DNA of 64,000 bases, from assembly GCA_036012125.1 (NCBI GenBank), contig DASCOS010000020.1, forward strand, positions 189,460 through 253,459, read 5' to 3'. This document shows positions 8,193-9,578 of this stretch, piece after piece. A model generated the notes under the pieces. The model was given only the letters and a program-made list of their open reading frames with translations, was not told the DNA's origin and made no database searches. The translations under genes were made by a program, and so were the position numbers. Source of the stretch: Vicinamibacterales bacterium (GTDB taxonomy: Bacteria; Acidobacteriota; Vicinamibacteria; Vicinamibacterales; UBA823). Position 1 is the stretch's first letter. Each line of letters starts with the position of its first letter.

Positions 8193-9578
8193 CTAGAAGA
8201 GCGCGAACTGCTCCTCAGTCGGCTCAGCTCAGCAATACCAAGGTTCATTGAGGTAAGGGATTGACGCACGAGCCTGGGTATTCCTCATGAGTGGTGGGCA
8301 GTGCAATGCACCCCGTTCGTGCGCTAGTGTCCAAATCTCCTCAAAAATCGCGCGCCGAGATGCCGACTGGTGTTGACCGACCAGGGTAATCACCTCGGCT
8401 TGGAGTGCATCGACACGGGGATCCGTATGAAACCAAGAATAGGAAAGCGTGTTCTTGTCGAACTCTCCTACAACCTCCGCCACCTCTTTATGGGTAAGCA
8501 AACTTGAACCTTCAGGCAGCAATAGGCGGATAGCCAGTTGGATCGGGGCGACTGCATCGACGAGGTCGAGGGAAGCAATGGACTGAAGATACGCGCAGTA
8601 GCTCTCAAGTGTCGTCCACGGCGTGAACGCTACAAACGTCGGTGTTAGAACGAGTCCCGCCGTTCGGCATGCGGCTACGGCTCGCTCAATGTCTTGTGGG
8701 GTGTGTCCTTTGTTAAGAATTTCAAGAACATGATTGTCAAAAGATTCAACCGCACTCGTAACAAACGCACAGCCTGTATCGCGTAGTGTTGCTAAATACT
8801 TAGCGTGAGCCAGTAAATGTGCAATCTTGATAGTCACGTCATAGGTAAGGTCAGGATACGTATCAGATAAACGCTGGACGACTTCAATAGCGTGAACTGA
8901 GCCATTGAAAAAATCAGGGTCCCCAAAGGTGATGTGACGAACGCCCATTTCAACTTGATTTCTGATGTCGGCCAGAACAATGTCGATTGGCACGACCCTA
9001 AACCGCCCTTTGTATACCGGGACGATCGGACAATGGCGACACGTATGCCTACAACCGCGGCTAGCCTCTGTGTATCCGACACATCTAGTTGACCCGGTTG
9101 AATCGTGCAAGGTAGCGTAGCGTGTGGGCGGCGGTAACCCTCGTCGGTCCGGTACCTTGAACGCAAGATGCGGTAGCGCAGTATCCGCAGTAGGCTGCGG
9201 TGGTGGCGTGCCTTCTCTCAAAGCGATCGCCAGAGCTTCTAGATCTGATTCAAATTCGGCACCAAGTACCGAGTGCACTCCGAGGTCACGCAGGAGTGAC
9301 TCGTTGAGCATCGCGTAGAGCCCATAGCCGCACAGATGCGCCGACGGATTGAGACTGCGAATCTTTTTAATCACTGGCACCGCAAGCCGCGTCGCCATAT
9401 GCATTGGTAGAAAAAAGGCCAATAACTTGGCCTGTGTAACTGAGTCGTCCCGTAGCCGCTCACGAGCCAGATCGACACACGTTACTTCGACGCCTGCATT
9501 ACGTAGCCAAGCTGCGGGCGAAGCTAGGCCAAACGGCTGTCGGCCCATCTCATAGGTCGCAATCAAGAGTGCACGCAT
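8193..9578 (-). CDS. Radical SAM protein with B12-binding-like N-domain and a C-terminal C-U-A-E-P tail (probable selenoprotein; UGA at 8231..8229 read as Sec)
   Basis: CX3CX2C in RGCRHTCRHCPIV. The track ORF stops at a TGA after ...EPWYC. The same frame continues AEPTEEQFALF to TAG 8195..8193. CUAEP matches the recalled family signature, and a hairpin lies 12 nt after the UGA. Confidence 0.75.
8196..8216 (-). promoter_or_regulatory. Candidate bacterial SECIS hairpin
   Basis: The mRNA GAGGAGC-AGUUCGC-GCUCUUC forms a 7-bp stem (one G-U) with a 7-nt loop containing GU. It starts 12 nt 3' of the in-frame UGA. Confidence 0.5.

Follow-up and report, generated by a model that had tools for sequence, protein, structure and literature searches.

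The canonical bacterial selenocysteine (Sec) insertion sequence (SECIS), of the Escherichia coli fdhF type, is a stem-loop that lies in the coding region just after a UGA codon (bSECISearch consensus; PMC13188914). Four criteria describe such elements: an apical loop of 3–9 nt is carried by a stem of 4–16 bp; G occurs within the first two nucleotides of the loop, as a rule with G or U after it; the loop lies 16–37 nt downstream of the UGA; and the minimum free energy (MFE) is −7.5 kcal/mol or lower (PMC13188914). The element considered here is a predicted SECIS-type hairpin at the 3′ end of a gene for a radical S-adenosylmethionine (SAM) protein. The gene is on the minus strand of a 64,000-nucleotide stretch of a Vicinamibacterales genome (Acidobacteriota; GenBank assembly GCA_036012125.1, contig DASCOS010000020.1, positions 189,460 to 253,459), referred to below as the window, in whose numbering the positions of its features are given.

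The only characterised relative of this protein's family is ArsL, an enzyme of arsinothricin biosynthesis that makes a carbon-arsenic bond. ArsL is a non-canonical radical SAM enzyme, which cleaves SAM to give a 3-amino-3-carboxypropyl (ACP) radical and joins this radical to As(III), which is bound by three cysteines (Cys) in a C-terminal RCCLKC tail. When the tail is removed or mutated, arsenic binding and product formation are abolished, and SAM cleavage is kept. The cleavage of SAM to the ACP radical and methylthioadenosine has been established for ArsL only.

The family itself, known as the CUAEP/CCAEP-tail radical SAM (seleno)proteins (U being Sec), is curated by NCBI as a selenoprotein family, NF040546. 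In the literature searched it appears once, as an uncharacterised CU-motif selenoprotein family in Haft 2022 (bioRxiv 10.1101/2022.07.06.499078), which links CU motifs to heavy-atom binding; a review of prokaryotic selenoproteomes from 2026 does not name it in the main text. The finding described here is therefore already known at the level of the family. The present analysis adds a corrected gene model, a family SECIS consensus with a clean contrast between Sec-containing and Cys-containing genes, an invariant Cys270, and a conserved three-gene neighbourhood that provides a testable functional hypothesis. These results overturn nothing in current understanding, and their main interest lies in a large ArsL-related selenoenzyme family that is open to biochemistry.

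The reading frame beyond the in-frame UGA

In a program-made list of open reading frames (ORFs), the radical SAM protein is 449 aa long and ends at TGA 8231..8229. The minus strand here reads CCT TGG TAT TGC TGA (8231..8229) GCT GAG CCG ACT GAG GAG CAG TTC GCG CTC TTC TAG (8195..8193), and the 3′ end translates as E-P-W-Y-C-UGA-A-E-P-T-E-E-Q-F-A-L-F-stop. The original prediction, made from the sequence alone, had placed the TGA directly after EPWYC and had followed the frame to this TAG, and the sequence agrees with it to the base. It had also held that read-through leaves 21 nt in place of 57 nt before the next gene; these figures are right if that gene, encoding an ATP-grasp enzyme, starts at the upstream GTG, and become 60 and 24 nt with the ATG of public gene calls.

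The identical 449-aa product is found in the GenBank metagenome-assembled genome (MAG) GCA_002730735.1 and in many marine metagenome assemblies, and every public copy of the exact gene that was found ends at the UGA. The 449-aa protein of the public gene calls is very probably a truncation artefact, the real protein having 461 aa with Sec at position 450. The practical outcome at this locus is thus an annotation fix, in which 461 aa with Sec450 replace 449 aa, and public records lack the very residue that is most probably important for catalysis. Since TGA terminates 28 of the 57 ORFs in the window, the codon has not been reassigned throughout the genome.

A sequencing or assembly error, or a pseudogene, would account for the bare presence of an in-frame stop and for nothing more. 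The same 449-aa product recurs in 57 blocks of independent assemblies, the same codon is TGA at 133 independent loci, and the gene is otherwise intact and under purifying selection; this explanation is already effectively refuted and its probability is negligible.

Membership of the CUAEP/CCAEP-tail family

NF040546.1 is an equivalog model of NCBIfam, named "CUAEP/CCAEP-tail radical SAM (seleno)protein", with a curated cutoff of 500 bits. The extended protein, with U written as C, scores 607.5 bits, and its residues 4–459 align with positions 2–467 of the 468 in the profile. The truncated 449-aa form scores 585.7 bits, with a match that ends at profile position 457. The tail adds about 22 bits, and the profile expects it, since the extended form is matched to 467 of 468 positions and the truncated form only to 457. 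The family name given in the original prediction is thus a real one, and the extended protein lies above its curated cutoff. Together with this score, the protein has the CX3CX2C motif of radical SAM enzymes, the C-[U/C]-A-E-P sequence near its C-terminus and the Sec/Cys column of the family, and by these sequence features the gene is a member of NF040546. The next-best NCBIfam match is to the ArsL model NF040542, with 284 bits (cutoff 450) over residues 4–398 only.

The family is very large, with at least 8000 database proteins matching at E ≤ 1e-30 (related families such as ArsL included), and is common in soil and marine Acidobacteriota. Five cysteines are invariant in 121 of 121 family members, namely C176, C180 and C183 of the cluster motif, Cys270 and Cys449, in addition to the Sec or Cys at position 450. 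Cys270, the only invariant Cys outside the cluster motif and the tail, is possibly a third ligand or an active-site residue. A PDB sequence search with the radical SAM protein returned no close structure, the best match being AprD4 with 38 bits.

Sec or Cys in orthologues, and a tail with coding conservation

Two sets of orthologous loci were collected. The first comprises 80 loci from a scan of species-representative genomes, mostly Vicinamibacterales and other Acidobacteriota, with some Methylomirabilota, Actinomycetota, Tectomicrobia and Proteobacteria MAGs; the second comprises 80 loci from a metagenome scan seeded with a Cys-form protein, 79 of which have a usable site. The codon homologous to the UGA is TGA in 77 of the 80 loci of the first set and TGT or TGC in the other three, and in the second set it is TGA in 56 of 79 and a Cys codon in 23. 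Pooled, the 159 loci with a usable site contain TGA in 133 cases (Sec form) and a Cys codon in 26 (Cys form). Among the best 120 protein homologues, PWYCCAEP is present in 79, and the chain ends at PWYC in 41.

A-E-P follows the UGA in 132 of the 133 TGA-containing genes, and the tail is exactly 11 aa long in 105 of them. A check suggested along with the original prediction was whether the column holds Cys or UGA in orthologues, with AEP kept after it, and this is what the loci show. The mean column entropy of the four codons between the UGA and the hairpin is 0.13, 0.29 and 1.41 bits at the first, second and third codon positions, respectively; a period of three of this kind is characteristic of translated sequence. 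Two outcomes had been named in advance as speaking against a selenoprotein, orthologues that end at WYC with nothing conserved beyond and a loss of codon-level conservation after the TGA, and both came out negative. Cys-form proteins, moreover, keep a homologous tail of 12 residues, typically CCAEPNPEQLTLV. An early idea, based on the short divergent tails of three Cys-form genome loci, was that the tail beyond A-E-P is conserved as RNA only; it is ruled out by the tail that Cys-form proteins retain.

These data bear directly on the possibility that the TGA is a genuine stop, that the native 449-aa protein ends at WYC, and that the conservation downstream belongs to a non-coding regulatory or mRNA-stability hairpin in front of the ATP-grasp gene. 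Public gene calls do end the protein at the TGA, the truncated form is still above the family cutoff, and Sec machinery is not seen in the window. However, the downstream sequence evolves as protein-coding sequence, with A-E-P near-invariant as amino acids and third positions varying freely, and Cys-form homologues translate the same tail (CCAEP...). The fixed in-frame position of the next stop codon, in the 105 genes noted above, and the lack of a U-tract that would suggest a terminator likewise argue against a genuine stop, as does the finding, described below, that the hairpin vanishes exactly where a Cys codon replaces the TGA. We consider it very unlikely that translation normally ends at this codon.

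A covarying hairpin in UGA-containing genes

Conservation after the UGA is in itself no proof of a SECIS, and the DNA of Sec-form and Cys-form genes was therefore compared. In a gap-free alignment of 77 Sec-form sequences (A1), with the UGA at columns 10–12, columns 25–31 pair with columns 37–43 around a loop of the form A-G-[G/U]-U-N. Pairing is found in 85.3% of the cells of this helix, compared with 43–55% when the 3′ partners are slid by one to three columns. Two-sided changes occur in 67 cells versus a mean of 20.7 in shuffled alignments, and the covariation score is 0.346 versus 0.186 after shuffling, with none of 500 shuffles reaching as high a value. The compensatory arm pairs include GAGC/GCUC, GGGC/GCCC, GACC/GGUC and GGCC/GGCC.

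Two other helices were considered and rejected. A 10-bp helix reaching the stop codon has three outer pairs that are mostly unpaired and show no covariation, and only its inner seven pairs were kept. A helix proposed by RNAalifold, in which the W-Y-C codons pair with the 5′ arm, is weak (−3.2 kcal/mol), shows no compensatory changes and falls in columns fixed by protein constraints; it is uninformative.

The two forms were further compared using the distinct sequences from both scans, 129 of the Sec form and 23 of the Cys form. Mean local folding energy is −10.5 kcal/mol for the Sec form and −3.8 kcal/mol for the Cys form (Mann-Whitney p = 6e-14). Six or seven of the seven pairs form in 97 of the 129 Sec-form sequences, whereas Cys forms have five or fewer. 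Loop identity differs in a similar manner: the G at column 33 is present in 129/129 Sec forms and 13/23 Cys forms, the U at column 35 in 128/129 and 21/23, and a C at column 34 is found in none of the 129 Sec forms but in 9 of the 23 Cys forms, where it belongs to CUN Leu codons. The Ala codon inside the helix has U as its third base in 104 of 129 Sec forms, and this base covaries with column 29; the Ala codon right after the UGA, which lies outside the helix, has a freely varying third base. In a strict search that allowed no bulges, 94 of 129 Sec-form sequences and 0 of 23 Cys-form sequences have a hairpin within all four published limits (PMC13188914).

Like the canonical bacterial SECIS, the element is a stem-loop in the coding region just after the UGA. 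In contrast to it, the element here occupies the very last codons of the gene, running into the stop codon in many relatives, and fits completely into the 11 codons of a tail whose protein sequence is conserved as well. Since the SECIS would lie inside them, these last 11 codons would be under two constraints, that of the protein tail and that of the RNA helix. Rfam returned nothing relevant for the window at the gathering threshold, and a scan of 8150..8280 with permissive settings gave the same result.

Some relatives depart from the common pattern. One Cys-form gene (L027, 7348..7398), with TGT at the homologous codon, has a Sec-type tail, CCAEPTTGQAALI, and a hairpin decayed to four of the seven pairs; it looks like a recent Sec-to-Cys conversion. 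A sub-clade consisting of L018, L024, L025, L034 and about 20 metagenome loci (for example L132, L134, L151 and L154) has a longer tail of 18–25 residues after the Sec position (AEPTGDQLVAIAKARETVRQSEGFV and similar), and still has the hairpin, with GACC/GGUC arms.

The hairpin of the window

The window's own hairpin (Table 1) has 7 bp, and the second and third bases of its 7-nt loop are G and U. It begins 12 nt after the UGA and places the loop 19 nt from it. The arms and loop proposed in the original prediction, GAGGAGC, AGUUCGC and GCUCUUC, at a SECIS-like distance, were exact in their coordinates, and the spacing is within the 16–37 nt range. The energy of the isolated hairpin is −8.5 kcal/mol, and all four published limits include it.

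At the family level, the gene does not differ from NF040546. The window and its two nearest relatives, L001 (73% identity) and L002, form a clade in which Ala-Leu is encoded by GCG CUC and not by GCU CUG; the 3′ arm is shifted by 2 nt relative to the majority register, and the loop is of 7 nt. The start of the loop, 19 nt after the UGA, is unchanged in comparison with the family, and A-G-U-U is kept.

A specificity control was made with all 2282 TGA trinucleotides of the window. Of these, 98 (4.3%) precede a hairpin that passes the four criteria, and two (0.09%) also show the family geometry, one being the present site and the other an out-of-frame TGA. Among the 28 TGA-terminated ORFs of the window, only the radical SAM ORF passes. 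The out-of-frame TGA (5382..5384, minus strand) lies in a gene for a DHA2-family major facilitator superfamily (MFS) transporter, and the hairpin after it has 9 bp, a GGU loop, 19-nt spacing and an energy of −11.5 kcal/mol. This hairpin is a chance look-alike of a bacterial SECIS, and the criteria alone are not specific. For the window's hairpin, the support is provided by the comparison with orthologues and by the contrast between Sec and Cys forms, and not by thermodynamics.

Probable selenocysteine insertion and its machinery

The UGA at 8231..8229 is very probably a Sec codon with a functional SECIS, because of the family score, the Sec/Cys column, the coding character of the sequence after the UGA and a covarying hairpin restricted to UGA-containing genes; the same four lines of evidence bear out the selenoprotein interpretation first offered for this gene. 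In the proposed mechanism, SelB with its bound Sec-tRNA(Sec) would be recruited by the mRNA hairpin at 8216..8196, whose A-G-U-U loop lies 19 nt downstream of the UGA, and the UGA would be decoded as Sec. The ribosome would then add A-E-P-T-E-E-Q-F-A-L-F before stopping at TAG 8195..8193. Recoding of this kind is the ordinary SECIS-dependent route of bacteria, and is notable here only because the whole element fits into an 11-codon tail that is conserved as protein. We infer that the organism carries selA, selB, selC and selD and inserts Sec.

The UGA might instead be read by some other tRNA, for instance a near-cognate Cys-tRNA or Trp-tRNA stimulated by the hairpin, to give a Cys-Cys or a Cys-Trp protein. 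Cys is found, and evidently tolerated, at this position in 26 of 159 homologues, and no Sec machinery was found in the window, both of which would suit such a reading. The hairpin, however, has the specific geometry of a bacterial SECIS, with a G-[G/U] loop at 19 nt, which goes beyond mere stability, and NCBI curates the family as a selenoprotein. TGA is also kept across Acidobacteriota, Methylomirabilota, Actinomycetota, Tectomicrobia and Proteobacteria MAGs. A single substitution would turn this codon into TGC or TGT; its retention in so many lineages therefore points to an advantage over such a change, a pattern that usually marks Sec. Decoding by another tRNA is accordingly judged highly improbable.

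Several results weigh against Sec insertion as proposed here. With regard to the RNA, the RNAalifold consensus missed the family helix, 35 of the 129 Sec-form hairpins failed the strict unbulged test at −7.5 kcal/mol, and the shifted register of the window, with its 7-nt instead of 5-nt loop, is shared only by L001 and L002. Folding, suggested at the outset as a check on the window's hairpin, gave a divided answer: the hairpin is recovered at −10.0 kcal/mol when the surrounding 30 nt are folded and is within the four published limits, but when 66 nt are folded another structure has the MFE (z = −0.48). With regard to the machinery, ARAGORN found no tRNA-Sec in the 64-kb window or in 120 related loci, NCBIfam annotation of the approximately 55 genes of the window found no SelA, SelB or SelD, and tblastn with the E. 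coli SelA, SelB and SelD proteins gave no match in the window and 160 related loci.

The only tRNA that ARAGORN and Rfam report in the window is a tRNA-Leu. No second selenoprotein gene, which would be an independent sign of Sec use, was found there. Two genes of the window resemble selenoprotein families in their Cys forms. The first (25933..27126, plus strand) encodes a 397-aa protein with two OsmC-like domains that matches NF041052, "OsmC-related (seleno)protein", with 165.8 bits and has no in-frame TGA; its neighbours are the benzoyl-coenzyme A (CoA) epoxidase genes boxB (22712..24133) and boxC (24187..25842), and a gene for a PaaK-like CoA ligase (27139..28413). The second (12178..12795, minus strand) encodes a ResA/TlpA-like thiol-disulfide oxidoreductase with the sequence W-A-T-W-C-G-P-C, and is a weak match to the WAxxUGC family NF041054. 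In one related locus (L135, 6728..6819), ARAGORN places a "tRNA-???" of 92 nt, whose anticodon has four bases, some 300 nt beyond the radical SAM gene; this call is probably a false positive.

Conserved neighbours

The coordinates of the gene, its parts and its two conserved neighbours are collected in Table 1.

Table 1. Coordinates of the radical SAM gene, its sequence elements and its conserved neighbours in the window.
Feature	Position	Strand	Basis or remark
Full-length radical SAM gene, predicted selenoprotein	8193..9578	-	ATG 9578..9576 to TAG 8195..8193; 461 codons plus stop; Sec would be residue 450
Radical SAM [4Fe-4S] cluster motif CX3CX2C (C176-R-H-T-C180-R-H-C183)	9030..9053	-	Sequence; Pfam PF04055 match
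Cys270 codon	8769..8771	-	Cys in 121/121 family members
Cys449 codon, directly before Sec	8232..8234	-	121/121 family members; TGY in 129/129 distinct Sec-form sequences
In-frame UGA, very probably read as Sec450	8229..8231	-	Homologous codon TGA in 133, TGC/TGT in 26 (159 loci)
11-codon C-terminal tail after Sec, A-E-P-T-E-E-Q-F-A-L-F	8196..8228	-	A-E-P conserved; period-3 entropy; Cys forms keep a homologous tail
Putative SECIS-type hairpin	8196..8216	-	5′ arm GAGGAGC 8216..8210; loop AGUUCGC 8209..8203; 3′ arm GCUCUUC 8202..8196
Probable true stop codon TAG	8193..8195	-	Sequence
ATP-grasp enzyme, L-amino-acid-ligase type	6906..8171	-	Downstream of the radical SAM gene; start GTG 8171 or ATG 8168 (public gene calls)
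YggX-like Fe(2+)-trafficking/oxidative-damage-protection protein, 99 aa	6560..6859	+	Convergent; PF04362 114.8 bits; NF003817 115 bits

The ATP-grasp protein contains the Pfam domains ATP-grasp_4, LAL_C2 and ATPgrasp_N, which is the architecture of L-amino-acid ligases, and among solved structures it is closest to the L-amino acid ligase BL00235 (PDB 3VOT; 139 bits, full length). Its gene is present at 90 of the 107 related loci with at least 1.5 kb of downstream DNA, and at 68 of these it is immediately downstream on the same strand. The YggX-like gene, whose product also has 99 aa in the gene calls of public assemblies, occurs at 71 of the 97 related loci with at least 2.2 kb of downstream DNA. 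Unbiased clustering of all neighbouring ORFs across the related loci revealed no broadly conserved partner beyond these two. A different arrangement is seen at eight loci labelled Methylomirabilis/NC10 or unclassified (L032, L035, L061, L069, L073, L074, L076 and L147), where some 3.4 kb separate the radical SAM gene from an ATP-grasp gene upstream of it and a YggX-like gene was not detected.

Comparison with ArsL and a possible role of the Cys-Sec tail

The protein and ArsL share a homologous catalytic body (the 284-bit match over residues 4–398), the CX3CX2C motif and a short tail with vicinal chalcogen residues, CC in ArsL and CU here. They differ in that the score against the ArsL model falls short of the 450-bit cutoff, with no profile match beyond residue 398, in that the tail is C-U-A-E-P-T-E-E-Q-F-A-L-F and not R-C-C-L-K-C, and in the presence of Sec. 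The conserved neighbours are also unlike those of ArsL, being the L-amino-acid-ligase-type ATP-grasp and YggX-like genes. Because of its score, its tail and its neighbours, the protein is, on the evidence of its sequence, not ArsL.

The homology to ArsL and the analogy between the tails, the link between CU motifs and heavy atoms, and the conserved L-amino-acid-ligase neighbour (90/107 loci) together suggest a function that we put forward tentatively: an ArsL-like ACP transfer may take place at the Cys-Sec tail and be followed by dipeptide formation by the neighbouring ligase. In this scheme, a soft metalloid or chalcogen atom, or some other substrate, would be bound in the active site by Cys449 and Sec450, possibly together with Cys270, and would receive the ACP group. 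The product, a methionine-like amino acid, would then be used by the ligase to make a dipeptide. A broader and more speculative form of this proposal, which by analogy with ArsL is conceivable but unlikely, is that CUAEP/CCAEP enzymes put the ACP radical on a soft atom such as Se, As, Sb or Te held by the Cys-Sec or Cys-Cys tail, or on the tail's own chalcogen, before the ligase makes a dipeptide. If true, this would amount to a widespread and undescribed pathway for organo-chalcogen or organo-metalloid natural products in soil and marine Acidobacteriota and their relatives. Two observations count against an ArsL-like function: the tail offers two chalcogen ligands in place of the three Cys of ArsL, and neither arsM nor arsQ was found by NCBIfam annotation of the whole window.

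If recoding is accepted, the C-U dipeptide could alternatively act as a mobile redox tail that forms a selenenylsulfide and gives electrons or a hydrogen atom to the radical SAM site. Mammalian thioredoxin reductase has a C-terminal G-C-U-G that forms such a selenenylsulfide. Redox chemistry would be in keeping with the vicinal Cys-Sec near a flexible C-terminus and with the presence of only two chalcogen ligands where ArsL has three Cys, and most bacterial selenoproteins are redox enzymes (PMC1088965). On the other hand, the closest characterised homologue uses its Cys-rich tail for substrate binding and not for redox, Haft 2022 ties CU motifs to heavy-atom chemistry, and a small-molecule product that is an amino acid would be consistent with the conserved ligase gene nearby. 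This redox role is the leading alternative for the tail, and appears rather doubtful.

A vicinal Cys-Sec pair, often near the C-terminus, is also a feature of other CU-motif selenoproteins, including HgcA variants, SAO-locus proteins and the MerT family (Haft 2022). For these proteins and for the GCUG sequence of thioredoxin reductase, it has been proposed that the dipeptide binds a heavy atom or forms a selenenylsulfide. Their folds, however, are unrelated to the present one, in which the dipeptide is carried by an ArsL-like radical SAM core.

Other observations in the window

Some further features of the window were recorded. Genes for a 3-hydroxyacyl-CoA dehydrogenase and an enoyl-CoA hydratase (19825..21450, minus strand) are in the same frame, with only a TGA and one codon between them. 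Both match full-length models, and they look like ordinary adjacent genes and not like a recoded fusion. Just upstream of mtnA (41357..42421), an in-frame piece of 335 codons (about 42440..43450, minus strand), ending ...ITNMAAGVLPEP..., looks like a nucleoside or methylthioadenosine phosphorylase gene missed by the rough gene call. Two large proteins are unrelated to the selenoprotein finding: a 914-aa Sel1/tetratricopeptide-repeat protein with repeated matches to the MerG model (61235..63979, minus strand), and a 1052-aa protein (12906..16064, plus strand) that matches the TolB beta-propeller models of NCBIfam and carries Tricorn and PD40 Pfam domains in public annotation.

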